From NCBI GenBank assembly GCA_947503035.1, contig CANNCD010000005.1, forward strand, positions 50,208 through 114,207: DNA of 64,000 nucleotides, in the 5' to 3' direction. This DNA comes from an uncultured Halocynthiibacter sp. GTDB lineage: Bacteria > Pseudomonadota > Alphaproteobacteria > Rhodobacterales > Rhodobacteraceae. The notes under the pieces were generated by a model, which did not search any database, was not told the DNA's origin, and saw only the letters and a list, made by a program, of their open reading frames with translations. Shown here one piece after another: positions 8,619 through 48,387 of the stretch. Numbering within the stretch: the first letter of the stretch is position 1; every line of letters begins with the position of its first letter. The position numbers were made by a program, and so were the translations under genes.

Positions 8619-8780
8619 TTTCACACCCTTTATAGGAAGCTTCGTGGGCCTCACCCGTCCAGCTTCACGCTCAGATGGCGCTTTTCGCCTAGGGTTTTGT
8701 GTTGAGACTTTGTTAAAAAAACCGATAGCGATGGATTTTTGTGCGCTTCAAATCGGCATGTCCTGAATTTTGTGCGCGAT

Positions 8781-8792
8781 ATTGTATACAAT
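8781..8792. promoter_or_regulatory. candidate GntR/FadR-type operator (perfect palindrome ATTGTATACAAT)
   Basis: 12-bp perfect palindrome with a GT-N-AC core, in the divergent region between the ABC operon and the GntR gene. It is nested in an outer inverted repeat, GCGCGATAT (8774-8782) / ATATCGCGC (8803-8811). Confidence 0.45.
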
Positions 8793-8883
8793 AATGCGTG
8801 CGATATCGCGCTTGAAATCCAGCACCAGCGAATCCAGTATGAGACCCAGCATATCCGCGCTGATGGACACGAAAGGACTGCAG

Positions 8884-9609
8884 ATGACCCAAACGCCTGT
8901 GACGCCGCCTGCGATACTTTCTGATGTGGAGAAAAATGCGACGCCGCCAAACGCGCAACAATTGTTTGAGAGATTAGAACTGGCCATCCACGAGCACCAG
9001 CTGCCGCCCGGCATGAAACTGGGTGAGGATGATATCGCCGATATCTACGGCGTCAGCCGCACAACCGTACGTTCCGCGCTGCAGACATTATCTCACCAAA
9101 GATTGGTCGAGCTCAAACGCAACCGAGGGGCCTTCGTGGCGCAGCCTTCGGTGCAAGAAGCGCGCGACGTGTTTGAGGCGCGTGCGCTGCTCGAGCCGCG
9201 CACCGCCTATTCGGCCGCTGAGCGCGCCACCCCTGAGGATATCGTGAGGTTGCAAGGTCACATCGACGCCGAGCACGAAGCATTGCACGCGGGCAATCAC
9301 GGGCGCGCCATTTATCTGTCAGGTCAGTTTCACATCGCGATTGCCAAGATCGCCGACCAGCACACTATTGAGGCCTTCATCACCCAGTTGATATCACGGT
9401 CCTCCTTGATTGTGGCGCTGTATTGGGAGCGCCGCGCCGCCATGTGTGAGAGCCATGCTCATGATGCTTTGATCTCGGCCTTTGCGGATCAAGATGGGCC
9501 GCGCGCAGAAGAACTGATGAAGAGCCATTTGTTGGACCTCGTCACCTCTCTTGATTTGCGCAACAAAACATCAGCCCCCGTATCGCTCAAGGATGCCCTC
9601 GCCAAATGA
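8884..9609 (+). CDS. GntR family transcriptional regulator with FCD-type C-terminal domain
   Basis: wHTH segment DDIADIYGVSRTTVRSALQTLSHQRLVELKRNRGAFV. Start set at ATG 8884, with alternatives at 8839 and 8863. The ORF-track start at 8770 would place the operator palindrome inside the CDS. Confidence 0.85.
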   Translation: MTQTPVTPPAILSDVEKNATPPNAQQLFERLELAIHEHQLPPGMKLGEDDIADIYGVSRTTVRSALQTLSHQRLVELKRNRGAFVAQPSVQEARDVFEARALLEPRTAYSAAERATPEDIVRLQGHIDAEHEALHAGNHGRAIYLSGQFHIAIAKIADQHTIEAFITQLISRSSLIVALYWERRAAMCESHAHDALISAFADQDGPRAEELMKSHLLDLVTSLDLRNKTSAPVSLKDALAK

Positions 9610-10463
9610 GCCACGCCCTTGCGCCCGAGATCAGTTTTCATACCGCCACGCTAGAACAAGTGGAGCGCATGCTGACTTGGGCCGCGCGTGAAGGTTGGAA
9701 CCCAGGTCTCGATGATGCGCAGGCCTTCTGGGGCGCGGACCCTGCCGGCTTTTTCATCGCAACATTGGCCGGCGACATGGTCGCGGCGATCAGCGTTGTG
9801 AATCACGATGATGACTTGGCGTTTCTTGGACTTTATCTTTGTGAACCCGAGTTTCGCGGACAAGGCATAGGCTTTGCACTTTGGCAACACGCGCTGAAGC
9901 ACGCAGGGTTCCGGACAATCGGGCTGGATGGCGTGACGGCCCAAGAAGCCAATTATCAAAAGTCAGGGTTTGTGCGCGACGGCGCAATCGTACGATTGGA
10001 AGGCGTGCTCGCCGACAAGATGCCTGCGGGCACACGTATGGTCGATTTGACCCACGACGCAGAGCAAATAGCGGCCCTCGACGCGCGGGCCATCGGATAC
10101 CGTCGCCCACGTTTTCTCTCACATTGGGTCACGCAGCACGTGGCCTCCCGCAAGACGATCGTCTCTGAAGGCAGTGATGGGATCACGGGTTTTGCCACCG
10201 TGCGAAACTGCGTGGATGGTGTGAAGATCGGCCCGATTGTGGCCCCAAGCACGCAAACAGCTTGGGCGCTTTTAACGGCAGCAGCAGCAATGTTTGACCG
10301 CCCAAAGGTCAGCGTCGACCTGCCAGACACACAGAGAAAACTCATGGCGATGTTGCAAGCCCATGGTTTCGAAGCCACATTCCAAACCGCGCACATGTTT
10401 CGCGGCCCGACGCCCGCTACATCCCACACCTACCGCGCCGTGGCCTCAATGGAATGCGGATAG
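9606..10463 (+). CDS. GNAT family N-acetyltransferase (two-domain, YitH-like architecture)
   Basis: 285 aa. Acetyl-CoA motif A-like FRGQGIGFALWQHAL. ATGA start/stop overlap with the GntR gene. Confidence 0.7.
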   Translation: MSHALAPEISFHTATLEQVERMLTWAAREGWNPGLDDAQAFWGADPAGFFIATLAGDMVAAISVVNHDDDLAFLGLYLCEPEFRGQGIGFALWQHALKHAGFRTIGLDGVTAQEANYQKSGFVRDGAIVRLEGVLADKMPAGTRMVDLTHDAEQIAALDARAIGYRRPRFLSHWVTQHVASRKTIVSEGSDGITGFATVRNCVDGVKIGPIVAPSTQTAWALLTAAAAMFDRPKVSVDLPDTQRKLMAMLQAHGFEATFQTAHMFRGPTPATSHTYRAVASMECG

Positions 10464-28040: not shown

Positions 28041-29123
28041 CTAGTGCGTCGATAAGGCCATTCTTCCTTTCAAATACTCGCCATACTGGCCGAGCGAAAA
28101 GATGAATGTCCAATATATCGCACCGACAAAGACATAGACCTCCATGTAATGCGGCGCCCACTCGCCTGTCCCGAAAGCAGCCTTGGCCGATGCCAGTACA
28201 TCAAAGAAGCCGATGATGATCACGATGGCTGTCTCTTTAAACGTCACAACAACCATATTGATGGTACTTGGCAAAGCATGGCGGAACACTTGCGGCAAAA
28301 TGATGCGCGCCATGATCTTCCAATACCCTATACCAAGGGCCTTGCCGGCTTCGAATTGCCCTTTCGGAATGGCCTGAAAACCGCCTCTGAAAACTTCGGC
28401 CTGATAACAGCCAAAGAACAAAGAAAACGCGATGATAACGCGCCAAATCTTGTCACCTTCAAGCCAGCTTGGCAAAAGGATTGGAACGACGACAGCCGCG
28501 GTAAACAGTGTAGTCAAAAGAGGCAATGAACGAATTGTATCGATCACGATCACCGCAAAGCTACGCACAACAGGCATCTCAGAGCGGCGCATCAACGCCA
28601 AGCCAAGCCCCATAGGCATGCCCAATAGAACAACAGACGCAAACAGAAATAACGTGAGGGAAAGCCCGCCCCACCCATCCGTTGTAACCTGCGCAAGGCC
28701 CAGCAAGCTCCCTTCCATCAGGAGATAATATGCAGCAAATCCTGCCACCCAAAGGCTTGTGAGTCGCTTCGCCGTCCAGGTGGCCGGAAAACAAGAAATG
28801 ATCACTGTCGCAATAATGGACAGGCAAGCAAATGTAGATCGCCAATGTTCCTCATAGGGATAAAGACCGAAGAGGATCAGGCGATGGCGCGCATCAATCA
28901 CAGACCAACAGGCACCCGCCTCTTCGGTACAGTGGGCAACATTTTCGGCGGACCACACCGCTCGAAAAATGGCCCAATCAACCGCAAGCCAAGTCCAATA
29001 CCCGAGAGCGCCAAAAATGACGATGGACAAAACTGCTGCGGATGGGGTCCCGAAAGCGCGTTTTGAGAAAGACGCCATATAGGCGTGAAAGCGGTTGGGA
29101 GATAATTTTTGAGTATGTGCCAT
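28041..29123 (-). CDS. amino-acid ABC transporter permease (AapM-like, long form)
   Basis: 360-aa multi-TM ORF. Its start lies 1 nt from the upstream stop. Confidence 0.85.
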   Translation of the reverse strand: MAHTQKLSPNRFHAYMASFSKRAFGTPSAAVLSIVIFGALGYWTWLAVDWAIFRAVWSAENVAHCTEEAGACWSVIDARHRLILFGLYPYEEHWRSTFACLSIIATVIISCFPATWTAKRLTSLWVAGFAAYYLLMEGSLLGLAQVTTDGWGGLSLTLFLFASVVLLGMPMGLGLALMRRSEMPVVRSFAVIVIDTIRSLPLLTTLFTAAVVVPILLPSWLEGDKIWRVIIAFSLFFGCYQAEVFRGGFQAIPKGQFEAGKALGIGYWKIMARIILPQVFRHALPSTINMVVVTFKETAIVIIIGFFDVLASAKAAFGTGEWAPHYMEVYVFVGAIYWTFIFSLGQYGEYLKGRMALSTH

Positions 29124-29124
29124 C

Positions 29125-30273
29125 TTAGTGTGCCTTTAGCTTTAGTCGATTGTTCAACCAATTCGTAAAAATTGAGATTGAAAAATTCACGGTAAGAAAC
29201 GCCGCCATCAACAAGAAGATAAGTTCAAGCGTCTGCCCAGATTGCGTAATGGAATTCGATACAATGTAGAACATATCACTAAAGCCAATAGCGATACCGA
29301 TGGTGGTGGCTTTCATGATGAAAATCCACTGATTGCCCAATGGCGGAATGATGCTGCGTAGCGACATGGGCATCTTGATGCGGTGCCAAATTTGACCTTG
29401 TGTTAGTCCCACAGCCTGCCCCGCTTCAATCAAACCACTGGGCACTTGTTTGAGGCCACCGCGCACAACTTCTGCGATATACGCACTTCCGTACAATGTG
29501 ATCGCTGTGATCATCGCTACGAGTTCAATAGAAACGGTTATGCCCCCATTAAATCGAAGCCCTTTCAATGATGGGATTGACAACAACGGCTCACCCTCGG
29601 GACGCATCACAAACGCAACAATCACAGACATCGAGATGGCCGCAGCAATCCAAATTATCAAACCACGCAGCAAAGGCACCTTTCTCCACACCAAAAGCAC
29701 AGCCACGCTAGCTATGGCCAAAATCAAAGCGACCGCGACGCTAGGCGATACATTTAAGCCTGGCAACATAAGCCCACGATTTGACAAAAATACACTGTCA
29801 GCGAATGACATGGATTGGCGCGGTCCTGGGAAATGTATGAGAACTGAGTAAAGGAAAACGCCTTGCAAAATCAAAGGAATATTACGGAACGTTTGTACAA
29901 AAACTGTTGCGGCGGCCTTCACGCCAGGATGGGATGAATCGCGTCCAGTTCCGATGATGAAGCCAAAAATCGTTGCAAAAAAGATGGAAATAAAACCGAC
30001 GAAAATCGTATTTTGAAATCCTATTACCAAAGTCTTTGAATAGGGATCATTGATGGATCGCTCGACCAGAGAAAAGCTGTAGTCCCAGCCTGTACTGCGA
30101 TCTAAAAACCCAAAACCGTTCGTAATTCCTAGCGCAGCAAGGTTGACTTGGGCACTGCTCACTGCCCCCCAAATCGCTATGATTGAGATGATAACAAGCA
30201 ATACTTGTATCGTAATTTTTCGCTGTCTACTCTTCTTTCGAAGCACTTCTGTTGTCGTCATATTAGCCCCCAA
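29125..30273 (-). CDS. amino-acid ABC transporter permease (AapQ-like, long form)
   Basis: 382-aa multi-TM ORF. An alternative start lies at 30261. Confidence 0.85.
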   Translation of the reverse strand: MGANMTTTEVLRKKSRQRKITIQVLLVIISIIAIWGAVSSAQVNLAALGITNGFGFLDRSTGWDYSFSLVERSINDPYSKTLVIGFQNTIFVGFISIFFATIFGFIIGTGRDSSHPGVKAAATVFVQTFRNIPLILQGVFLYSVLIHFPGPRQSMSFADSVFLSNRGLMLPGLNVSPSVAVALILAIASVAVLLVWRKVPLLRGLIIWIAAAISMSVIVAFVMRPEGEPLLSIPSLKGLRFNGGITVSIELVAMITAITLYGSAYIAEVVRGGLKQVPSGLIEAGQAVGLTQGQIWHRIKMPMSLRSIIPPLGNQWIFIMKATTIGIAIGFSDMFYIVSNSITQSGQTLELIFLLMAAFLTVNFSISIFTNWLNNRLKLKAH

Positions 30274-30318
30274 ATATAAGTGAACCGCCCAATATCGATT
30301 GGGCGGTCCATATACTGT

Positions 30319-31356
30319 TTAGTCAAGGATCGGAGCGTAAAGAACGCCGCCGTGGCTCCAGAGATTGTTCAAGCCACGCTCAAGATTGTACGGGCTTTCA
30401 GAACCGAGGTTTCGATCGTAGATTTCACCGAAGTTACCAACTGCTGCGATCATTTCACGCGCCCAAGTATCACGGATGCCAAGACGCTCGCCCATTCCCG
30501 GTTCAACACCAAGAAGGCGTGCCACCTTAGGGTTCGGAGGTGTTGCGGCCATTTCTTCGACATTCGCAGAGGTGACGCCTTCTTCTTCGGCAATCAAAAG
30601 CGCCGCGATTGTCCAGTTCGCCATATCAACGAAACCTTCATCGCCTTGACGCATTGCTGCTGCGATTGGCTCGCTCGAGAGTTGGTCATTCAGAATGACG
30701 TGTGCGTCTGGGTTATCGAGTTCGGTCGCGCGTAGAACCGCCAGACTTGGGCCCCAACCCGCAAAGGCATCACAGCGATTTGCAAGATATGCCGCACGAA
30801 GTTCAGCCGCGCTTTCGTAGGACACCATGGTGTGCTCAACGCCAGCGGTCTGAAGGTAGTTTGCGGAAATACGTTCAATCGTTGTACCCGCTTCAACACA
30901 AACGGTACCGCCTTCGAGGCCGGACGAGTCCGAGATACCCAGATCACCGTGGACCATGAACTGTGTCCCACCAAAGAAGTAAGGCAAGCTGAACTGAAGA
31001 CCAAGCTCTGTATCGCGGCCCATTGTCCAACCTGTCGCCTTAATAATGATATCGACATCGCCGGACTGAAGTGCAGGGAAACGTTGGGCCCAGCTAAGCG
31101 GCACAATTTGCGCCTTGTCTGGATCACCAAGAATCGCGGTGGTCATTGCACGGCAAAGGTCGATATCAAGACCCTTCCATTCGTTCTTGTCGTTCACTTC
31201 GACAAAACCGAAGTAGCTACCGTTGTGGCCAGAGCACAACATAGTCCCGCGATCCATAATCTGCTGAACCGTCGCGCTCTGCGCGAATGATGCAGTTGGA
31301 GCCAAGGCTGCGCCCGCAAGACCCACTGCAATTGCAAGTGTCGTATTCTTTTTCAT
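30319..31356 (-). CDS. amino-acid ABC transporter substrate-binding protein (AapJ-like)
   Basis: 345 aa with a signal peptide (MKKNTTLAIAVGLAGAALAPTASFA). An AAGGAG RBS lies upstream. Confidence 0.85.
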   Translation of the reverse strand: MKKNTTLAIAVGLAGAALAPTASFAQSATVQQIMDRGTMLCSGHNGSYFGFVEVNDKNEWKGLDIDLCRAMTTAILGDPDKAQIVPLSWAQRFPALQSGDVDIIIKATGWTMGRDTELGLQFSLPYFFGGTQFMVHGDLGISDSSGLEGGTVCVEAGTTIERISANYLQTAGVEHTMVSYESAAELRAAYLANRCDAFAGWGPSLAVLRATELDNPDAHVILNDQLSSEPIAAAMRQGDEGFVDMANWTIAALLIAEEEGVTSANVEEMAATPPNPKVARLLGVEPGMGERLGIRDTWAREMIAAVGNFGEIYDRNLGSESPYNLERGLNNLWSHGGVLYAPILD

Positions 31357-31378: not shown

Positions 31379-31412
31379 GCTGTATGTCAGCACATATGTA
31401 TTGACATACAGC
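31379..31412. promoter_or_regulatory. 34-bp near-perfect palindrome upstream of the AapJ-like gene (operator or 5'-UTR hairpin)
   Basis: GCTGTATGTCA (31379-31389) / TGACATACAGC (31402-31412) form perfect 11-bp arms. The central ACATATGT is also palindromic, so 30 of 34 positions are self-complementary. It lies 23-56 nt upstream of the start codon. Confidence 0.5.
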
Positions 31413-31914
31413 ATGACGAGGCCAATTCATCGAGTCAACAATTTTAAATGAGTATCAGCTTTCGAATTATCAATTTGCCCAAAACAACCGCATATCACCT
31501 AAAATGAAAGGCACATCATTGTGTGGAAGTTCCTAAATAAGGTGGTGGCCGGAATTTCGGATACAAACTTGACCACCAGCCCCTCAAGATCAGAGAGCCG
31601 ATCATCTGTCCGGAGGAAGACGCCGTGGTGAAGATATTTTCAACGCATACAATCTCGGACAGTCCGCACTCATCATCGCAACTATCTTCACCGCTGAAGG
31701 AACCCCTGCGCCACCATCTTGCAAGTGCACAGGAACCTTTTCTCAGGCTTTCGCAAGCGGCAAACTCTCTCTTAGAGCGGATCGCTCCTGCCATCAGCCA
31801 CGGAGACAAGCAAGCCCGAATTTGATCAAAATCAGTCACAACACCTTCTAGATGCTATAGTGATGTTTTGAGCTAAATTGATTGAGCCGTCGCCAAGACA
31901 CCCTCCAAGCCGCA

Positions 31915-33279
31915 TCACTGGCTGAGCTGCCAAATTTGATTATTGAGATGGGACAGAAGCTTTGGCAGAGTTTCGCGTTGAATACGCCCGCCAAGACAAA
32001 TGCGCACGTTTTGGTCATGTATCCCCGCGGTGCGAAACGCGTTTTCAGGGGCAATGCCGATCTCGTGGTTGGACATATGGGACATCAACGTCGCACAGCT
32101 CACGTTCTCGGGGAGCCGCAGCCAGATATTAAATGCATGCGGGTGTGACCAAAACTCGGCCTCGGTGATTTCCTGCGCGGCGATTTCCTGACGGATGGCG
32201 CTTTCTTTGCGAATATAGCGTCGAATTTGATCCGCCGTGCCATCTAGAACCCAGCGGGTCGCAAGCGCCATACACACCGGCGAAGACATGCCTGATACGG
32301 CACGAATACCATTTTCAAGGGCGAAATTGGCCCTCGCATTGGGAGTGACGGTATAGGCAAGACGCAACCCCGCGCCAATGCACTTCGCAAGCCCCCCGAT
32401 GTACCACGTCAACTCAGGCGCGCTGGTTGCCATCGGAGGCGGCGCATCAGGTAGAACAAACCCATAGGCATCGTCCTCAATCAGCGGAAGACTGTGGCGG
32501 TTGATCACCTTGGCAATCTCAAGGCGGCGATGTTGAGGCACAATCATAGTGGTCGGATTGTGCAAGGTCGGATTAAGATAAAGCGCTTTTGGACCATGGC
32601 GGTGAATGGCCTCTTCGAGGGCGTCTGGCAAAATGCCATCCTTGTCCATCGGCAAACCAATCAGTTCAAGACCCAGCTGCGCCGCGATCTTTTTGAAGCC
32701 CGCATAGGTAATATCTTCGCACAAAATGCAATCACCAGGGCGCGCCAAAACAGTGAGGATCGCGAGCATCGTGGCATGTGCCCCAGGGGTGACCGACACG
32801 CGATCCAGATTGGGCACCAACCCACGCATAGACAGCCAGATCGACGCCGCTTCTTTGTCGACATCGCCGCCCATCGGTGCTTGATAGCGCAGCAGATGCA
32901 AGAGATCTTCGGACACGGCAGAAAGCCCTAAGCGCATGCGTTCGATAAGATCAGGATCCGTGGGTTCGGGCGGCGCATTCATGGTGAGATCATTCGCCAT
33001 CGCGCGGCGTTCATCGCTGGCACCGTTGATATTGTGCTGGGGCAACACAAAGGTGCCACGCCCAACATGTGATTCAACAAGTCCGCGACTGATCGCTTCG
33101 GTATAGCCACGTGAAACGGTTGTGAAATCAACGCCAATCATGTCGGCAAGCCGCCGCTGCGGCGGCAACCGATCACCGGGTAACAACACACGATCCTTCA
33201 TGTCCTGCGCAATACAATCGGCAATCGCCAAATACCGCGGTTTGCTCGCTTGTTCGATTCTTTTCGACCAATTCTCCAT
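31915..33279 (-). CDS. MocR/GabR-type regulator (GntR wHTH fused to a PLP-dependent aminotransferase-fold domain)
   Basis: wHTH segment LPPQRRLADMIGVDFTTVSRGYTEAISRGLVESHVGRGTFV. Aminotransferase fold with a PLP-lysine context (GGLAKCIGAGLRLAY). Start set at MENWSK (33279). Confidence 0.85.
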   Translation of the reverse strand: MENWSKRIEQASKPRYLAIADCIAQDMKDRVLLPGDRLPPQRRLADMIGVDFTTVSRGYTEAISRGLVESHVGRGTFVLPQHNINGASDERRAMANDLTMNAPPEPTDPDLIERMRLGLSAVSEDLLHLLRYQAPMGGDVDKEAASIWLSMRGLVPNLDRVSVTPGAHATMLAILTVLARPGDCILCEDITYAGFKKIAAQLGLELIGLPMDKDGILPDALEEAIHRHGPKALYLNPTLHNPTTMIVPQHRRLEIAKVINRHSLPLIEDDAYGFVLPDAPPPMATSAPELTWYIGGLAKCIGAGLRLAYTVTPNARANFALENGIRAVSGMSSPVCMALATRWVLDGTADQIRRYIRKESAIRQEIAAQEITEAEFWSHPHAFNIWLRLPENVSCATLMSHMSNHEIGIAPENAFRTAGIHDQNVRICLGGRIQRETLPKLLSHLNNQIWQLSQ

Positions 33280-33433
33280 TGCTCTCCGTTCATCCTTGCG
33301 CTTAGTGCCAACATTGTATGCATAGTATGCAATCAATATTAGGGCGAGAAGCAAGCCTGTAAAGCGCCAAAAAAACAAATACAGCCCAAATATTCGCATA
33401 TTTTATCCGGTATCGCACAGCAGTTAAGCAAAA

Positions 33434-33475
33434 GCGTACAATCAATACAATTGCATTGTATGTATAATTGTACGC
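33434..33475. promoter_or_regulatory. nested palindrome of TACAAT/ATTGTA hexamers in the MocR / nit-cluster divergent region
   Basis: The sequence reads GCGTACAAT-CAA-TACAAT-TGC-ATTGTA-TGTATA-ATTGTACGC. Outer arms are 9 bp and inner arms 6 bp. A further ATTGTA lies at 33313-33318. The element is 70-111 nt upstream of the first nit gene. Confidence 0.5.
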
Positions 33476-33544
33476 ACCAATAGAAGCCTACCGCATGACC
33501 TGACACACCTAAGGCAAGACAACCGCAAACTACAGGAGAGCGAA

Positions 33545-34027
33545 ATGCCAAAGGTAACAACACCAGCCCATAAAGACGGTGATTTCTTTGTGGACTACGA
33601 AGAGAAAGTATTCGAAGACGTACAGGCCGAAGAAGGCCAGAAAGCACTTGTGACCTTCCACTCTGTTGCCTTTGAGGGCTCTATTGGATTGGTGAATATC
33701 CTTCAGGCCATCCGCCTACAGCGCAAAGGTTTTGAGACGTCTGTGCTGCTTTATGGCCCAGGTGTGTCTTTGGGTGTTCAACGTGGTTTCCCGACATTGG
33801 GCGACGAAGCCTTTCCGGGCGCGCAGAACTATTCGGCCAACTTGAAAAAGTTCATGAAAGAGGGCGGCAAAGTCTATGCCTGCCGTTTTGCCCTGCAAAT
33901 GCTTATGGGCCACGGCGAGCCATCCTTGCTTCCTGGCATCGTGCCAATCGCACCGCAAGATGTGCTTGATCTCAAGTTGCTACACATCCGCGACGATGCG
34001 GTGATCGTGGACACCTGGACTGTCTAA
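33545..34027 (+). CDS. nitB: MSMEG_0572/Sll0783 family nitrogen-starvation-response protein (Nit1C cluster NitB-like)
   Basis: 160 aa, with RBS AGGAG upstream. The family is recognised from memory by sequence and by its position directly before the nitrilase. Confidence 0.75.
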
Positions 34028-34139
34028 CACCGGAAGCTTTGGGGCGGCAACGGCGTCGCCCCAAGGCTCCGACCTTCAAATTTGAATTCATCTGATCATG
34101 GCGCGGTTTTCCCCGCCGATCACCCACAAAGGATGGCCT

Positions 34140-35112
<973 letters not shown>

Positions 35113-35126
<14 letters not shown>

Positions 35127-36213
35127 ATTGATCAATGAATTGCAGACCCATGGAATGCGGCTGGTTGACCCGACCGCGGGCATGGAAAGCCGTCGTGGCG
35201 GGGCGGGTCCAACGGATCACAAGGCCGTCACGATTGGCGACACCACGGTCATGGTCCCTGTCCACACCGCTCCGGCCTTTGACAGCCCCTACTGGGTGCA
35301 AGCGCCCGACGAAGACGGGTTCGCGCAAGTCAGCAAACAAGGCCAGCCGTTGGCCAAAATTCGGTTCCCGAACCGCCCCAAATTCTATGACCTGAAAACC
35401 GCAGATGGGGTGGAATACAGCAAAATCGCGACGCTGCACTCAAAGGACGTTCTGGCCACGACGGTTTTGCAAACCTGCATTCGGTATGAAAGCCGCAAGA
35501 AAACCTGCCAGTTCTGCTCTATCGGCCAGTCCCTCGCCGCGGGTCGCACGATTGCCCATAAAACGCCCCAACAGCTCGCCGAAGTTGCCAAGGCCGCTGT
35601 GGAATTGGATGGCGTGAAACACATGGTTATGACCACAGGCACCCCCGCCGGAAAAGATCGCGGCGCATCGGTGATGGTCGACAGCGCCCTTGCGATCAAG
35701 GCCGCGGTTGATTTGCCAATCCAAGGCCAATGCGAACCACCCGAAGACAACATCTGGCACGAGCGCATGTTTGAAGCGGGCATCGATGCGCTTGGCATGC
35801 ACCTTGAAGCCGTGACCCCAGAAGTGCGCGCACGCGTGATGCCCGGCAAGGCGCAAGTCAGCTTAGAGAAGTACTTTGACAGCTTCAAATCCGCGGTCCA
35901 AGTGTTCGGTCGCGGCCAAGTCTCGACCTATATTTTGGCCGGCCTCGGGGATACGCCCGAAGCGATCCTTGAGACCTCGCAAGAGCTTTGCAATATCGGG
36001 GTTTACCCCTTTGTGGTGCCATTCGTTCCTGTTTCGGGCACCCCAATGGAAAGCCACCCCGCGCCCGATGCAGATTTCATGGCACGTATCCTTAAGCCTT
36101 TGTCGGGCATGATTTTACGGGCAGGCATGAGCGCGGAAAGCGTAAAAGCAGGCTGTGCCAAATGTGGCGCGTGCTCGGCCCTTTCTGTCTACGAAAAATT
36201 GAGGGCGTCATGA
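35113..36213 (+). CDS. nitD: MSMEG_0568-type radical SAM protein
   Basis: 366 aa. Cys cluster [18 protein letters not shown] plus a C-terminal [16 protein letters not shown]. 14-nt overlap with the nitrilase gene. Confidence 0.8.
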
Positions 36214-36761
36214 GTTTTCAGAACCCCCGCATTTTTCTCTCACCCGATTTTATTATCCGCGCGGCGGCCAAACCTTGGGAACTTAACGGCGTTGAGGCCC
36301 TGCGCCGTCAAGTCTTTGTCGATGAACAAGGCATTTTCAAAGACCATGACCGCGACGCGATTGACGCGATTGCCATGCCGCTCGCGGCCATAAGCACGCT
36401 TGCGTCTGAGGCGGATCAAGTGGTCGGCACCGTGCGCATTCACGAAGAGGCACCGCGGTTGTGGCGCGGTTCGCGTTTGGCGGTGACTGAGAGCCATCGA
36501 CGCATGGGGCGCCTTGGCGCCGAACTCATTCGGTTGGCGGTTTGCACCGCACATGGGCGTGGCTGCGACAGGTTTCTTGCGCAGGTTCAGATGCAAAACG
36601 TGCGCCTCTTTAAACGCCTCCACTGGACCCCCTTGCAAGAGGTGAACGTCCACGGCGTCCCCCACATGGAGATGGAGGCCGACCTTAACGCCTACCCTGC
36701 GATCACGGACCCATTCGTCGGCTGGAAATCCCTTTCCCCGCACCGAAAGCGCAGCGCATGA
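36210..36761 (+). CDS. nitE: MSMEG_0567/Sll0786-type GNAT N-acetyltransferase
   Basis: ATGA overlap with the upstream gene. Motif A-like HRRMGRLGAELIRLAV. Confidence 0.8.
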   Translation: MSFQNPRIFLSPDFIIRAAAKPWELNGVEALRRQVFVDEQGIFKDHDRDAIDAIAMPLAAISTLASEADQVVGTVRIHEEAPRLWRGSRLAVTESHRRMGRLGAELIRLAVCTAHGRGCDRFLAQVQMQNVRLFKRLHWTPLQEVNVHGVPHMEMEADLNAYPAITDPFVGWKSLSPHRKRSA

Positions 36762-37741
36762 GAACTCAGCAGTCCCTTCGCCAGATCGCGCGTACGCTGC
36801 GTGACCATCCGTCCATCCGCAGCAAGCTCGACATCGCCCAAAGCACCGCAACACTTGGTTTGACCTCTGACAGCGCGGGCCAACCAGGCGATGATTGCGC
36901 CGTTTTGCCGACCCAAGACGGTTACGATTTATTCGCCTGCGAAGGGTTCATCAACGCTTTCGTACAGGCCGATCCGTGGTTTGCAGGGTGGTGCGGCGTG
37001 ATGGTGAACATTTCGGATATTCTATCTATGGGCGGTCACCCAAAGGCGGTCACCAACGCGATTTGGGCCCCAAGCGCCGATAAAGCGCAGCCTGTCCTTG
37101 CGGGAATGAAAGCCGCATCTCTGGCATATGGCGTGCCAATTGTGGGCGGACACACCAATCTCCATACGGATGAATTACAGCTTTCGGTGTCCATTCTTGG
37201 GCATGCGACAAATGTCATTTCAAGCTTTACGGCCCAGCCCGGTGACGTTCTGATCTGCGCGGTAGATTTACGAGGCAGCTACCGAGAGCCCTTCGACAAC
37301 TGGAACGCAGCCCTGACCGCAGCTCCTCAAACGCTTCGGACTACTATGGATATTTTGCCTAAACTGGCAAACAGTAACCTTGTACATTCAGGCAAAGACA
37401 TAAGCCAAGGCGGCATCGTTGGCACTGCACTGATGCTGGCTGAAGCCTCCGGTGTTGGCATCGACATTCAAGTCGATGCAGTGCCGCGCCCAGCGGAGGT
37501 TGCACTAGATCGCTGGCTTCGCAGCTTCCCAAGTTTCGGCTTTTTGCTCAGCGCAAGACCAGAGAATGTCGAGGCTATTTGCCAAGCATTTGTCGCCCGA
37601 GGGGTTTCCGCCGCAGCCTGCGGAGACATCAACGATGGCAGCGCTGTGCAGCTCTCAGGACGCGAAGAAACCGCCGTATTCTGGGATCATGAACGCACCC
37701 CTTATTTGAATTTAACAGCAAGAGAACCCCACCATGCCTGA
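36758..37741 (+). CDS. nitF: Sll0787-type AIR synthase-related (PurM/ThiL/HypE superfamily) protein
   Basis: ATGA overlap. PurM-superfamily N-terminal motif GDDCAVLP. 327 aa. Confidence 0.8.
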   Translation: MRTQQSLRQIARTLRDHPSIRSKLDIAQSTATLGLTSDSAGQPGDDCAVLPTQDGYDLFACEGFINAFVQADPWFAGWCGVMVNISDILSMGGHPKAVTNAIWAPSADKAQPVLAGMKAASLAYGVPIVGGHTNLHTDELQLSVSILGHATNVISSFTAQPGDVLICAVDLRGSYREPFDNWNAALTAAPQTLRTTMDILPKLANSNLVHSGKDISQGGIVGTALMLAEASGVGIDIQVDAVPRPAEVALDRWLRSFPSFGFLLSARPENVEAICQAFVARGVSAAACGDINDGSAVQLSGREETAVFWDHERTPYLNLTAREPHHA

Positions 37742-38012
37742 AGCACGTTTTACCATTCAATGGCCTGATGGTCAGACCGAAGACTGCTACTCACCATCGA
37801 CCGTTATTCGAGATTTCCTAGCTGCGGGGACCACATATACACTGAGTGACTTTCTATCTCAGAGCCGCTTGGCATTAGAAGAAGCCAGCACACGCGTAGA
37901 GGCCAAGTTTGGGTATCGCTGCACGAGTGCGGACGCACAATTGGAAAAAATCGAAAACGCCGCGCGCGCTTTTTCTGCAGCCGACAACGTTACATGCCTG
38001 TCGATCACCTAA
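37734..38012 (+). CDS. nitG: MSMEG_0570-type small protein of the Nit1C cluster
   Basis: 92-aa ORF overlapping the upstream gene by 8 nt. Its position and size match the conserved small gene of the cluster. Confidence 0.65.
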   Translation: MPEARFTIQWPDGQTEDCYSPSTVIRDFLAAGTTYTLSDFLSQSRLALEEASTRVEAKFGYRCTSADAQLEKIENAARAFSAADNVTCLSIT

Positions 38013-38023
38013 GGAATACATCC

Positions 38024-39280
38024 ATGAACCATCGCGAATATAAATCTATCGTCGTTGTCGGCGGTGGTCAGGCCGGCCTGTCGGTAAGTTACTATCTAAC
38101 ACAGGAAAACATCGACCATGTTATCTTGGAACGTCGGAAGAAATTCCATTCGTGGCGGGTCAATCGGTGGGATACTTTTTGTCTGGTCACGCCCAATTGG
38201 CAATGCCGTTTACCTGATTTCCCTTATGCAGGAAATGACCCTGATGGGTTTATGGTAAAGGACGAGATTGCGAATTATCTGGATGCCTTTGCACAGACGT
38301 TCAATCCGCCAATTGTTGAAGATTGCGAAGTGACACGGATCACAAAACGGCCCGAAGGCGGATACCTTGTTGACACGTCCATGGGTAACTATTCGACCGA
38401 CCAAGTCGTGATTGCCACCGGTGGTTATGACAACCCGATTGTCCCGCCCTATGCGGCCGACCTCGATCCCTCGATCATGCAAATGCATTCGGTAGACTAC
38501 CGCCGCCCAAGCCAAATGCCCGAGGGCGCAACCCTTGTGGTTGGCACGGGGCAATCGGGGGTTCAGCTGATGGAGGATTTGCACCTCGCTGGCCGCGACG
38601 TTCATCTCGCTGTGGGCCCTGCACCACGCTCGCCTCGGATGTACCGAGGACGAGACGCGACCGATTGGATGTATGATTTGGGCCACTACGACATCACAAT
38701 CGATAAACACCCAAACCCTGAACACGCGGTATCGAAGACCAATCACTATATGACTGGACGTGACGGCGGACACGAAATTGATCTGCGCAAATTTGCCCGC
38801 GATGGAGTGTCTTTATATGGCTCGGTCAGCGGCATGGACGACAAAAGTATTCAATTTCTGCCAGACTTGGAAAAGAACCTGGATGACGCGGATGAAAGCT
38901 ATCTTGGCATTTGTACGGCCATTGACGGCTACATTGAGAGGAACAATATCGATGCCCCTGTAGAGCCGGAATTTGAAAAGGTTTGGCGTCCAGAACAAGA
39001 GATCACTCACATTGATTGCGAGGCCCTCGGCATCACTTCAATCCTTTGGGCGATCGGGTTTCGCCCGAACTATGGGTGGATCGACGTCGATGTCTTCGAC
39101 GATCTGGGGCGTCCTGTTTACAGGCGCGGCGTGTGTGAAGAAGACGGGTTCTATTTCATCGGTCTGGGATGGTTGAACACATGGGGATCCGGCCGATTTT
39201 TGGGGATTAATGAAGACTCCAGATACTTGGTTGACGTGATTTCAGCACGACAAAAAAGCAAGATGCGCGAAGCATCATGA
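38024..39280 (+). CDS. nitH: MSMEG_0569-type flavin-dependent (class B FMO-like, two-dinucleotide-fold) oxidoreductase
   Basis: FAD fold VVVGGGQAGLS and a second fold LVVGTGQSGVQL. Start ATG 38024 follows AAGGAA. Confidence 0.85.
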   Translation: MNHREYKSIVVVGGGQAGLSVSYYLTQENIDHVILERRKKFHSWRVNRWDTFCLVTPNWQCRLPDFPYAGNDPDGFMVKDEIANYLDAFAQTFNPPIVEDCEVTRITKRPEGGYLVDTSMGNYSTDQVVIATGGYDNPIVPPYAADLDPSIMQMHSVDYRRPSQMPEGATLVVGTGQSGVQLMEDLHLAGRDVHLAVGPAPRSPRMYRGRDATDWMYDLGHYDITIDKHPNPEHAVSKTNHYMTGRDGGHEIDLRKFARDGVSLYGSVSGMDDKSIQFLPDLEKNLDDADESYLGICTAIDGYIERNNIDAPVEPEFEKVWRPEQEITHIDCEALGITSILWAIGFRPNYGWIDVDVFDDLGRPVYRRGVCEEDGFYFIGLGWLNTWGSGRFLGINEDSRYLVDVISARQKSKMREAS

Positions 39281-40113
39281 TTGCACAGCCCACAAGCGCG
39301 CAAAAACACATCAGCCACCATGCAACCCATACTCTAGGCATGGCGCAGCTAGGGTTGCGTGGACTGGCGGAAGAATGGTGGCTGCGCCATCTTGGCGATG
39401 TGCATTGGCAATTGATTGCCGCTTCCCTCGGTCAAACCACAACTGTGTTCAAAGATGCCTCTGGGCGGCAAGTCTATGCGGCCTTTTGTGCGACCGAGTT
39501 TGCCCAACTCAATCCTGATCACATCGGTTTGGGAGATGTCTTAGAAGTGAATTCCATACTGTGGGCGGCCGGCAGAAGCCGCCTTCAATCCAACCATGTC
39601 CTTATGGTCGGCAATGTCATTGTTGCGCGCTTTCGGTTGATTTCCACATTTGTGTGCCACGAGAAAGATGGCCTTAATTCGAGCATCTGTCGCACAATGC
39701 CCTACTTGGTTCCGGTGCTTGATCCTGCGCCGGATGCATTTGCCGCGCAAACAAGCCAAACGGCCCGTGCCTGCCGCGCCCAAGACAAAACATGGGAGAA
39801 GAACGTCCTGATACACCCCTGTGTGGGGACTGATTTCAACGCTGTGGGGCTGCTCTATTTCCCAAGCTTTACGCGTTTTTTCGATCAAGTTGAACGCTGC
39901 CTCGAAAACTCCAAAGAATGGGCCCCCGTGCGGTGCCGGCGTGTGCACTATTTTGGCAACATTGAACGTGGTGAAGATGTGATCGGGGCGCGGACATCGT
40001 CTGGCAAACCCGTTGGTTTGGAACTGTGGCACTCAGCAGGACACGCAAAACCCACGAAAAAACTGGCCCATAGTGCGCTTCAGCGGTTTCCAATCCGATC
40101 AAAGCCAGCCTAG
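39277..40113 (+). CDS. Pnap_2097 / LnmK-N-terminal-like (double hot-dog fold) putative biosynthetic protein
   Basis: 278 aa with an ATGA overlap to the monooxygenase gene. The N-terminal pattern GMAQLGLRGLAEEWWLRHLGDVHWQLIA recalls the Pnap_2097/LnmK_N family. The assignment is from memory. Confidence 0.5.
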   Translation: MIAQPTSAQKHISHHATHTLGMAQLGLRGLAEEWWLRHLGDVHWQLIAASLGQTTTVFKDASGRQVYAAFCATEFAQLNPDHIGLGDVLEVNSILWAAGRSRLQSNHVLMVGNVIVARFRLISTFVCHEKDGLNSSICRTMPYLVPVLDPAPDAFAAQTSQTARACRAQDKTWEKNVLIHPCVGTDFNAVGLLYFPSFTRFFDQVERCLENSKEWAPVRCRRVHYFGNIERGEDVIGARTSSGKPVGLELWHSAGHAKPTKKLAHSALQRFPIRSKPA

Positions 40114-47811: not shown

Positions 47812-48387
47812 CTACGCTTTTGACAGTTGGATCAACGCGTCCAGCGACGCTTCGAGGTCTTGTGGTTTCTCTATACCTCGGGCGACCAACATTGCCCCCT
47901 CAAGGCTTGAGACAAACAATTTGGCAAACATGCCAGCGTCCAAATCGTTGCGGATTTCACCTGTTGCTTGGCCATTGCGCAGAACATTCGTGACCCAGTC
48001 GTACTGATCTGCGAAGAACAACGCGACTTCTGAGCGCACGCGTTCAGGAAGAGATGACACATCCGCCGCCAACACGCCACACAGGCATAAACCACGCTGA
48101 TTTTGCAGGGTGCTCACGAAGAGCCCGCCATATTCACGCATGAGGTCGGATGCAGATGTGGCTTCTATCTGGGCTGTCAGTTCGCGAAAATTCTGACGAT
48201 ACTCTTTTGCCACTGCCTCGGCCAAGTCGGGCTTTGTTGCAAAGTGGTAGTGAATGCTCGCGCTTTTGATCCCTACAATTTCCGCGATGTCACGAAAACT
48301 GAAGCCATTGTACCCGCTTTCCATCATAAGATCGCGCGCAGTATTTAAGATGGCGGTTGCCTTACTATTGGGTTGTCGCTCGGTCAT
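47812..48387 (-). CDS. TetR/AcrR family transcriptional regulator
   Basis: HTH segment GYNGFSFRDIAEIVGIKSASIHYHFATKPDL. Confidence 0.9.
   Translation of the reverse strand: MTERQPNSKATAILNTARDLMMESGYNGFSFRDIAEIVGIKSASIHYHFATKPDLAEAVAKEYRQNFRELTAQIEATSASDLMREYGGLFVSTLQNQRGLCLCGVLAADVSSLPERVRSEVALFFADQYDWVTNVLRNGQATGEIRNDLDAGMFAKLFVSSLEGAMLVARGIEKPQDLEASLDALIQLSKA

Follow-up and report, generated by a model that had tools for sequence, protein, structure and literature searches.

The control of a Nit1C gene cluster was analyzed in a 64,000-nucleotide stretch of DNA from an uncultured Halocynthiibacter sp. of the Rhodobacterales (contig CANNCD010000005.1), which is called the window in the following. 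In this stretch a gene encoding a MocR/GabR-type regulator (mocR, minus strand) stands divergent from a nitBCDEFGH operon that ends in an LnmK-like gene (plus strand), and the spacer between the two carries repeated TACAAT/ATTGTA hexamers, which are the subject of this work. Nit1C is reportedly a widely conserved seven-gene cluster that has been recognized since 2005. In Pseudomonas it has been connected with the assimilation of cyanide, and in cyanobacteria and mycobacteria with nitrogen starvation.

An earlier note on this DNA had described a MocR gene divergent from a Nit1C cluster, and this was confirmed by the domains of the regulator and by seven NCBIfam models. All seven proteins from NitB to NitH exceed the curated cut-offs of the Nit1C models, and the set of seven genes by which the cluster is delimited (Podar et al., 2005) is complete. 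It comprises nitB (33545-34027; MSMEG_0572/Sll0783 family; TIGR04044, 270.8 bits versus a cut-off of 109.85), nitC (34098-35126; Nit6803-family nitrilase with a CN_hydrolase domain; TIGR04048, 560.4 bits versus a cut-off of 502.6), nitD (35113-36213; MSMEG_0568-family radical SAM protein; TIGR04043, 586.7 bits), nitE (36162-36761; GNAT acetyltransferase of the MSMEG_0567/Sll0786 family; TIGR04045, 220.6 bits), nitF (36758-37741; sll0787-family AIR-synthase-like protein; TIGR04049, 438.2 bits), nitG (37734-38012; MSMEG_0570 family; TIGR04042, 119.6 bits) and nitH (37994-39280; MSMEG_0569-family flavin-dependent oxidoreductase; TIGR04046, 616.6 bits), all on the plus strand. The next gene on this strand (39277-40113) encodes a Pnap_2097-family/LnmK-like acyltransferase-decarboxylase (TIGR04099, 184.9 bits versus a cut-off of 125). 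The gene and the nitH stop codon overlap by 4 nt, and the operon probably ends with this gene, which is an accessory eighth member of the cluster in these lineages. The nit genes overlap one another with the exception of a 70-nt gap between nitB and nitC, and because of this tight packing 33545-40113 reads as a single operon. Homologues of the LnmK-like gene come after nitH in many, not all, of the MocR-linked loci described below.

On the other side of the spacer, mocR (31915-33279, minus strand) encodes a protein of 454 amino acids if translation starts at the ATG at 33279. The longest open reading frame (ORF) and the public 494-residue protein P0001 begin at 33399. However, judged from protein lengths and alignment starts, orthologues mostly comprise 453-458 residues and conservation sets in at 33279, so that the annotation probably sets the start 40 codons too early. 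A start at 33399 would mask as coding sequence the first of the two sites described in the following.

The spacer (33280-33544, 265 bp) contains five exact hexamers, TACAAT at 33437 and 33446 and ATTGTA at 33313, 33455 and 33467 as read on the plus strand; the four copies within 33434-33475 and the single copy at 33313 that had been noted before are thus all present. The 64-kb window as a whole holds 27 TACAAT where 19 are expected, or about 0.42 per kb. Five hexamers within 160 bp correspond to approximately 70 times the window density (Poisson estimate about 1e-8 per 160-bp stretch), and the cluster is therefore far beyond chance. The hexamers fall into two candidate operators, neither assigned to a strand. 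Site 1, the mocR-proximal candidate (33313-33337; ATTGTATGCATAGTATGCAATCAAT), is an imperfect 25-bp palindrome of two 10-bp boxes which lies 34-58 nt upstream of the mocR ATG and has the consensus ATTGTaTGCATAnTATGCAgACAAT among relatives. Site 2, the nitB-proximal candidate (33434-33481; GCGTACAAT-CAATACAAT-TGC-ATTGTATGTA-TA-ATTGTACGCA-CCAAT), lies 64-111 nt upstream of the nitB ATG and consists of a leftward pair of boxes set 9 bp apart, a rightward pair set 12 bp apart and one partial box. The 42-bp palindrome of the earlier note (33434-33475) falls within it, as does a TATAAT at 33463-33468. The palindrome had been described as nested. Its arms are indeed perfect, with 9/9 complementary positions in the outer pair GCGTACAAT/ATTGTACGC (33434-33442 and 33467-33475) and 7/7 in the inner pair ATACAAT/ATTGTAT (33445-33451 and 33455-33461), but the two palindromes are not concentric (centers at 33454.5 and 33453) and the perfect form is specific to this sequence. 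A repeat finder returned a four-copy family of 10-mers, ATTGTATGCA, at 33313, 33322, 33455 and 33467. As judged by comparison of the spacers, the hexamers are the cores of 10-bp boxes, the general form of which is ATTGnnTG(C/G)A and the roseobacter form ATTGTATG(C/G)A.

Conservation was analyzed in an alignment of the window spacer with those of nine relatives from the roseobacter group (alignment A1), whose MocR proteins are 80-87% identical. These spacers have diverged almost fully, and only the two start regions, the ribosome-binding site of nitB (ACAGGAGA, 33531-33538, plus strand), which is invariant in all 10 spacers, and sites 1 and 2 are conserved. Site 1 appears as the island ATTGTATGCAT...(G)ACAAT (window 33313-33337) and site 2 as C(A/G)TACAATCAATACAATT..ATTG..TGCA.AATTGTA(T/C)G.AT.AAT.G (window 33434-33486). 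Within the latter, the 10 species show little or no change in TACAATCAATACAAT and TTGTA while the flanks have diverged, and the inner-right hexamer (33455-33460) is kept merely as ATTG in the relatives. Two islands were found again in 12 further Rhodobacterales with 55-59% identical MocR proteins. The island on the mocR side, GAATTGAAGCnnATTGTATGGAT, is the equivalent of site 1, and the one on the nitB side is a triple direct repeat, ATTGTATGCAtaATTGATTnnTnnATTGATTGCA, with a 12-bp period, which begins or ends within about 75-105 nt of nitB on its upstream side. The rightward tandem of site 2 is common to the window and this mid-distance group, where it has the form ATTGTATGCAtaATTGATTnnTnnATTGATTGCA. 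A multi-box layout with defined orientations that is conserved between species is a feature of MocR-family operators, and at the level of the boxes it is apparently present here.

Perfect inverted repeats of 9 and 7 bp, as they occur in the window, could also form a DNA cruciform or an RNA hairpin acting as attenuator or terminator, in which case the 42-bp palindrome would not be made of protein-binding boxes. However, pairing and covariation across the 10 relatives equal those of shuffled controls (85.0% versus 85.2% paired cells; covariation 0.057 versus 0.057), the inner helix is broken without compensation in 5-7 of the 10 sequences, and the pair count over these sequences revealed no compensatory change. 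The arms are A+T rich, and no match to an Rfam family was obtained. A structural element of this kind is exceedingly improbable, and the lack of compensatory changes argues that the boxes are conserved singly, as for protein binding rather than for a hairpin.

The distribution of the gene pair was followed in a NitB scan of one genome per species (GTDB set), of which the best 80 of 451 confirmed loci were compared with 10-kb flanks, and homologues were located by tblastn with the window proteins. Upstream of nitB, 65 of these best 80 loci encode a MocR homologue on the opposite strand. The two genes are direct neighbors in 56 of the 65, with spacers of 237-755 bp, and are separated by 1.5-2.5 kb of inserted or relocated genes in the other nine; in one further locus (L073) mocR and nitB are on the same strand. 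MocR-linked clusters occur in Alphaproteobacteria (Rhodobacterales, Rhizobium, Rhodopila, Methylobacterium), Betaproteobacteria (Cupriavidus, Massilia, Herbaspirillum, Methylophilus, Limnobacter) and Gammaproteobacteria (Pantoea, Tatumella, Brenneria, Sodalis, Marinobacter, Marinobacterium, Gynuella, Oceanospirillaceae). Nine cyanobacterial loci, four from Bacteroidota and one from Agaribacter lack MocR. When MocR homologues were picked blind to NitB (Roseibium, an Agrobacterium plasmid and Acuticoccus; 55-58% identity), 3/3 were divergent from a full Nit1C cluster. The co-occurrence within the Rhodobacterales is borne out, with mocR adjacent to nitB in 20 other spacers of this order. The view that the pairing is unusual has to be given up, as it is the majority layout of proteobacterial Nit1C and was already listed by Suvorova and Rodionov (2016). 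In four Massilia loci (L054, L055, L057, L062) nitE and nitH have been relocated between mocR and nitB. Four Methylophilaceae loci (L039, L044, L049, L052; Methylotenera, Methylophilus, Methylobacillus) carry an inserted gene at this position, which encodes not a regulator but a protein of about 410 amino acids with an N-terminus that, by eye, resembles a signal peptide.

In the window, the other neighbor of mocR is an Aap-like amino-acid ATP-binding cassette (ABC) transporter (28041-31356, minus strand) with an SBP_bac_3 gene and two permease genes. MocR might control this transporter or be the ectoine regulator EnuR, with its position next to Nit1C being incidental. Consistent with this, the transporter genes follow downstream of mocR on the same strand, single boxes are found at 31518, 31646 and 31877, and the top NCBIfam match of MocR is EhuR/EnuR (NF052286). 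However, the score of 402.1 bits is below the cut-off of 480 bits, which makes MocR a relative of EhuR/EnuR and not a member. The permeases are far below the EhuC/EhuD cut-offs, and genes for ectoine uptake or catabolism (ehu/ueh, eut/doe) are not among the neighbors of mocR, which are Nit1C and the Aap-like transporter. More than 100 bp separate the three stray boxes from one another, and the box at 31646 falls within an ORF. In addition, the solute-binding protein has no match in any of the 80 loci, and the permeases have only weak ones (27-34% identity) in three loci, none of them beside mocR; the other-side neighbors of the three blindly picked homologues differ from case to case. Since the linkage to Nit1C is conserved (65/80 and 3/3) and the linkage to the transporter is not, the conserved partner of MocR is Nit1C, and control of the transporter or of ectoine genes in its place is very improbable.

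The boxes were then compared over 57 short spacers, which are those of the window and of the 56 loci with directly adjacent mocR. ATTGnnTG was found 2-8 times in nearly all of them. Its central dinucleotide varies by clade and is TA in roseobacters, AC, AA or CA in Rhizobiales, Acetobacteraceae and Burkholderiales, and AT (ATTGATTGCA) in gammaproteobacteria and in betaproteobacteria of the Methylophilaceae/Cupriavidus type. In total 200 ATTGnnTG(C/G)A boxes were counted in 19.9 kb of spacer (10.1 per kb), compared to a background of 0.39 per kb over the other 1.01 Mb of the same loci and to 28 +/- 5 boxes (maximum 40) in composition-matched spacers simulated with a first-order Markov model. 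At least two boxes are present in 51 of 56 spacers. Upstream of nitB in the loci without MocR, together with L073, 1.2 boxes occur per kb. Of the nine loci in which other genes intervene between mocR and nitB, eight have boxes upstream of both, as is expected if MocR recognizes the boxes and is autoregulated; all eight Massilia and Methylophilaceae loci named above carry ATTGnnTG boxes upstream of mocR as well as of nitB.

A simpler account would be that the hexamers are plain -10 elements of two divergent sigma-70 promoters and that no dedicated regulator site exists. TACAAT is one mismatch from the TATAAT consensus, the perfect TATAAT at 33463-33468 lies inside site 2 and relatives retain a hexamer of the shape cAnAnT at this position; an overlap of operator and -10 element may well occur. 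However, 15-25 invariant bases and five to six copies in both orientations exceed the needs of a -10 element, and no matching -35 element was found on the plus strand. Moreover, the boxes recur 2-8 times in beta- and gammaproteobacterial spacers in which nitB has a clear sigma-54 promoter, and they are depleted upstream of nitB in loci without MocR. We therefore regard this account as unlikely.

MocR itself consists of a GntR winged helix-turn-helix domain (PF00392, residues 16-78, E = 1.9e-12, above the cut-off) and an aminotransferase-fold domain (Aminotran_1_2, PF00155, residues 159-445, E = 8.8e-18). Its closest relatives of solved structure are the aminotransferases MppQ and LysN, and GabR was matched as well. 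K299 (motif LAK-CIGAGLRLAY) aligns with the Schiff-base or catalytic lysine of MppQ and LysN and is invariant in 64 homologues, so that the context of the pyridoxal 5'-phosphate (PLP) lysine is retained, as had been stated. N241 (NPT motif), Y272 (DDAY motif), R306 and R426 are, like K299, identical in 64/64 Nit1C-linked MocR proteins, of which 58 have D and 6 have E at position 270. R306 has a phosphate-binding role, and the C-terminal R426 aligns with the arginine which binds the substrate carboxylate in class I aminotransferases. The conservation of these residues in 64 homologues argues that the sensor pocket is under selection. From general knowledge of aminotransferases, the effector probably bears an amine and a carboxylate, and the invariant PLP-site residues including the carboxylate-binding arginine would fit an amino-acid-like compound.

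Among named MocR families, the ectoine regulators EnuR, EhuR and EutR of Ruegeria pomeroyi and Sinorhizobium meliloti are the closest, and they share the architecture, the PLP lysine and the predicted half-site with the MocR of the window. The operator predicted for EnuR/EutR is ATTGT-N6-ACAAT with the consensus ATTGTnnnnnnACAAT, and EnuR has been described as a repressor (PMC8739950); repression is lifted when an amino-acid-like intermediate of the pathway reacts with PLP. The ATTGT/ACAAT half-site held in common ties the hexamers independently to the EnuR branch of the family. In contrast to EnuR, the genomic partner of the window MocR is Nit1C and not the eut, ehu or ueh genes, and instead of a 16-bp palindrome the window has tandems spaced by 9-12 bp and a 25-bp palindrome, with a different number of boxes.

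The earlier note had placed MocR and the palindrome at this cluster instead of a sigma-54 activator. To analyze this, each spacer was scored against TGGCACG-N4-TTGCW, for which the maximum is 20.5. A canonical -24/-12 promoter (TGGCAC-N5-TTGCW; scores 17.5-20.5) was detected in 36/36 spacers of loci with at most 54% identity of MocR, 65-128 nt upstream of nitB. These spacers belong to Rhizobium, Rhodopila, Methylobacterium and all beta- and gammaproteobacteria (within loci L012-L079). No sigma-54 promoter was found in the spacer of the window or in any of the 20 other Rhodobacterales spacers, where best scores were 11.5-16.5. The best candidate of the window, AGGCAAGACAACCGCA (16/20.5, 33 nt before the nitB ATG), was rejected because its score is at random level and the transcription start would fall inside the ribosome-binding site. 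Furthermore, the 64-kb window holds no ORF of at least 250 codons with the GAFTGA signature of sigma-54 enhancer-binding proteins (G[AS][FY]TGA). For the window the statement is thus correct, but outside the Rhodobacterales it sets up a false dichotomy, as 36/36 spacers there have both. In most lineages MocR and sigma-54 control appear combined and not as alternatives, and the Rhodobacterales alone lack the sigma-54 promoter.

In the distant spacers that could be anchored on the sigma-54 promoter, the distance from the -24 element to the nearest MocR boxes upstream of it is mostly no more than about 40 nt. In about ten of them an inverted ...CAAT box is placed 0-2 nt from TGGC, e.g. TGCAGTCAATc[TGGCAC or aaatcaat[TGGCAT, and a few loci have a box that overlaps with the promoter. 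Loci L014 (about 9875-9930), L066, L043 and L033 are examples of spacers with both promoter and boxes. Since MocR has no AAA+ domain and could not activate a sigma-54 promoter, a negative or architectural role is most plausible there. We know of no MocR factor that has been described to act at a sigma-54 promoter. An ORF with GAFTGA within 10 kb was found in only 1/80 loci, which implies that the activator of these promoters is encoded elsewhere; given the link to nitrogen starvation, NtrC would be the obvious candidate.

The boxes could also be true operators of another factor, e.g. NtrC or a nucleoid protein, with MocR regulating something else. Induction of Nit1C by nitrogen starvation in cyanobacteria and mycobacteria (NCBIfam names and papers) is in line with this, as is the requirement of the relatives' sigma-54 promoters for an enhancer-binding protein encoded elsewhere. 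However, the boxes co-occur with MocR and are near background density in clusters without it, and they lie directly upstream of mocR even when it is apart from nitB. In addition, their half-site is the predicted operator half-site of the closest MocR family, and a layout of direct plus inverted boxes is typical of MocR motifs (PMC5320631). Binding by another factor is on these grounds quite unlikely, and the TACAAT/ATTGTA boxes between mocR and Nit1C are very probably the operator of MocR, as far as can be judged from comparative sequence analysis.

In Pseudomonas the same nitBCDEFGH operon is likewise accompanied by a divergent dedicated regulator, NitA (PMC11049912). As stated in the earlier note, NitA is documented as a sigma-54 enhancer-binding protein (PMC11049912). 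It belongs to the Fis family, whereas the window has neither a GAFTGA protein within its 64 kb nor a sigma-54 promoter at nitB. No conserved upstream sites were reported in the original description of Nit1C (PMC1199592).

The closest precedent is a reconstruction of regulons for 825 MocR factors (Suvorova and Rodionov, 2016; Microb Genom 2:e000047; PMC5320631). Its Table S1b lists, under the names 'YrdX' and 'YrdX3', 11 regulons composed of PF02635, COG388 (nitrilase), COG2516 (radical SAM), COG3153 (acetyltransferase), COG2144 (AIR-synthase-like) and COG2072 (flavoprotein), some with COG438 in addition (PMC5320631). This operon content identifies the YrdX/YrdX3 regulon as Nit1C. The 11 regulons are from Rhizobiales, Burkholderia, Comamonadaceae, Ralstonia and Rhodospirillales, without Rhodobacterales or gammaproteobacteria, and the regulators listed under YrdX include H16_A1958, RL1422 and Pnap_2106 (PMC5320631). 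The main text mentions neither YrdX nor nitrilase, the regulons being given in the supplementary table only, and a predicted YrdX motif was not found in the text or the supplement of that paper (PMC5320631). Experimental work on the listed YrdX genes was not found in the literature. The window and the 65 related loci match the YrdX regulons in operon content and in the adjacency of MocR, a match made by content and not by protein sequence; the link was drawn via loci of the same genera, L040/L070 (Cupriavidus) and L068/L076 (Rhizobium), which have the same divergent pair. Compared to YrdX, the TA central dinucleotide and the leftward-leftward-rightward-rightward order of boxes are the window's own, and in contrast to the loci compared here from outside the Rhodobacterales, among them loci of YrdX genera (Rhizobium, Cupriavidus/Ralstonia), the window has no sigma-54 promoter at nitB. 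The kind of control seen here is thus one that was predicted computationally in 2016, and it is found in a new lineage, with an operator variant of its own and without a sigma-54 promoter.

MocR-family control of cyanide-induced gene clusters has been described in Pseudomonas, and by family and description these regulators resemble the MocR of the window. MpaR of Pseudomonas aeruginosa mediates cyanide-dependent induction which needs PLP-pocket residues, and sensing of cyanide-modified PLP was proposed (PMC10790758). In Pseudomonas pseudoalcaligenes CECT5344 a mocR gene (BN5_1899) adjoins the cyanide-induced cio cluster, and in a mutant of this gene the cio cluster and the Nit4 nitrilase are expressed constitutively, suggesting that this MocR is a repressor (PMC8567248). 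'YrdX3' also includes Ralstonia regulators of cyoABCD-cysI clusters (PMC5320631). The targets of MpaR and BN5_1899 differ from Nit1C, as they are terminal oxidases and Nit4, and the MpaR motif ATCTGAT differs from the ATTG boxes of the window. A cyanide- or nitrile-related effector would be an attractive idea for the Nit1C-linked MocR as well. Further likeness exists to GabR, PdxR and TauR, which share divergent gene pairs, autoregulation, multi-box operators with direct and inverted repeats and a switch through an external aldimine of PLP and effector (PMC5320631). Their boxes have other sequences, and the repeats of GabR and TauR are two to three helical turns apart, whereas those of the window are spaced by about one turn.

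Taken together, these results suggest that 31915-40113 is one regulatory module in which MocR acts via sites 1 and 2 on the nit operon, and we assign a probability of roughly 0.8 to this reading. In this model dimers of MocR would bind the boxes via their winged helix-turn-helix domains. Site 1 would serve the autoregulation of mocR. Site 2, which spans the most -10-like sequence upstream of nitB, would govern whether RNA polymerase can reach the nit promoter. A compound that bears a primary amine and a carboxylate, or possibly cyanide-modified PLP, would be the effector and react at the PLP bound to K299 and alter the geometry of the DNA-binding domains, and the operon would thereby be switched on.

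Several points weigh against this model. Data on binding, expression or transcription starts of Nit1C-linked MocR proteins were not found in the searchable literature. A sigma-70 consensus scan of 33200-33620 gave no plus-strand match, and the nitB promoter was not placed; the minus-strand matches in this region are weak and not conserved in relatives and were discarded, so that no promoter was assigned to mocR either. Residues of the recognition helix (about 45-75) vary with the central dinucleotide of the boxes in the 64 loci (DFTTVSRGY with TA, DFTTVARGY with AC or AA, NYTT(A/V)AR(A/G)Y with AT). This concerted change is suggestive of a co-evolution of protein and DNA, but it is confounded with phylogeny, and because the two are inseparable it was dropped as evidence. 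Finally, GabR, PdxR, TauR and MpaR are activators, so that MocR may be one as well, and GabR, PdxR and TauR activate at promoters that are taken to be of the sigma-70 type.

By analogy, repression relieved by an effector is slightly favored as the sign of regulation, because EnuR is a repressor, the MocR of CECT5344 was suggested to be one, and boxes lie near the sigma-54 -24 element in relatives. Activation as by GabR, PdxR, TauR and MpaR, or a dual mode, is possible. Only tentatively do we propose a wider scheme, in which MocR might sense a metabolite of the Nit1C pathway, or cyanide or an aminonitrile via PLP as proposed for MpaR, gate a nitrogen-starvation sigma-54 promoter in most proteobacteria and be the sole dedicated switch in the Rhodobacterales.

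Similar elements at other positions of the window were inspected as well. Other box matches within the 64 kb are isolated single boxes, mostly in coding DNA, and an extension of the regulon within the window was rejected. A perfect 14-bp palindrome (TATTGTATACAATA, 8780-8793) is located at the 5' end of an ORF for a FadR-type GntR regulator (8770-9609; GntR and FCD domains), just upstream of the likely true start of this gene, which is divergent from an ABC-transporter ATPase gene. The palindrome has a TGTA/TACA core in common with the MocR boxes and is probably the operator of the FadR-type regulator itself. A perfect 10-bp inverted repeat, CTGTATGTCA-N12-TGACATACAG (31380-31411), precedes the SBP_bac_3 gene (30319-31356, minus strand) by 24-55 nt and is an operator candidate at the Aap-like transporter. 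The pair TACAAT-N27-ATTGTA at 48274-48312 (48274/48307) inside a TetR-family gene (47812-48387, minus strand) is most likely due to chance.

In conclusion, comparative genomics lends good support to the regulatory reading, but not to the claim that it is unusual. The analysis adds the scale of the linkage, the common box, the dependence of the box on MocR and the juxtaposition of MocR boxes and sigma-54 promoters. This picture counters the impression given by the Pseudomonas literature that Nit1C is typically under the control of NitA. A sensor domain that forms a covalent adduct with its effector would be a direct biochemical handle on the Nit1C metabolite, with the release of DNA from a defined 50-bp operator as readout. 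If MocR is indeed a sensor of a Nit1C metabolite, ligand screening of this single protein would show which compound Nit1C produces or breaks down.

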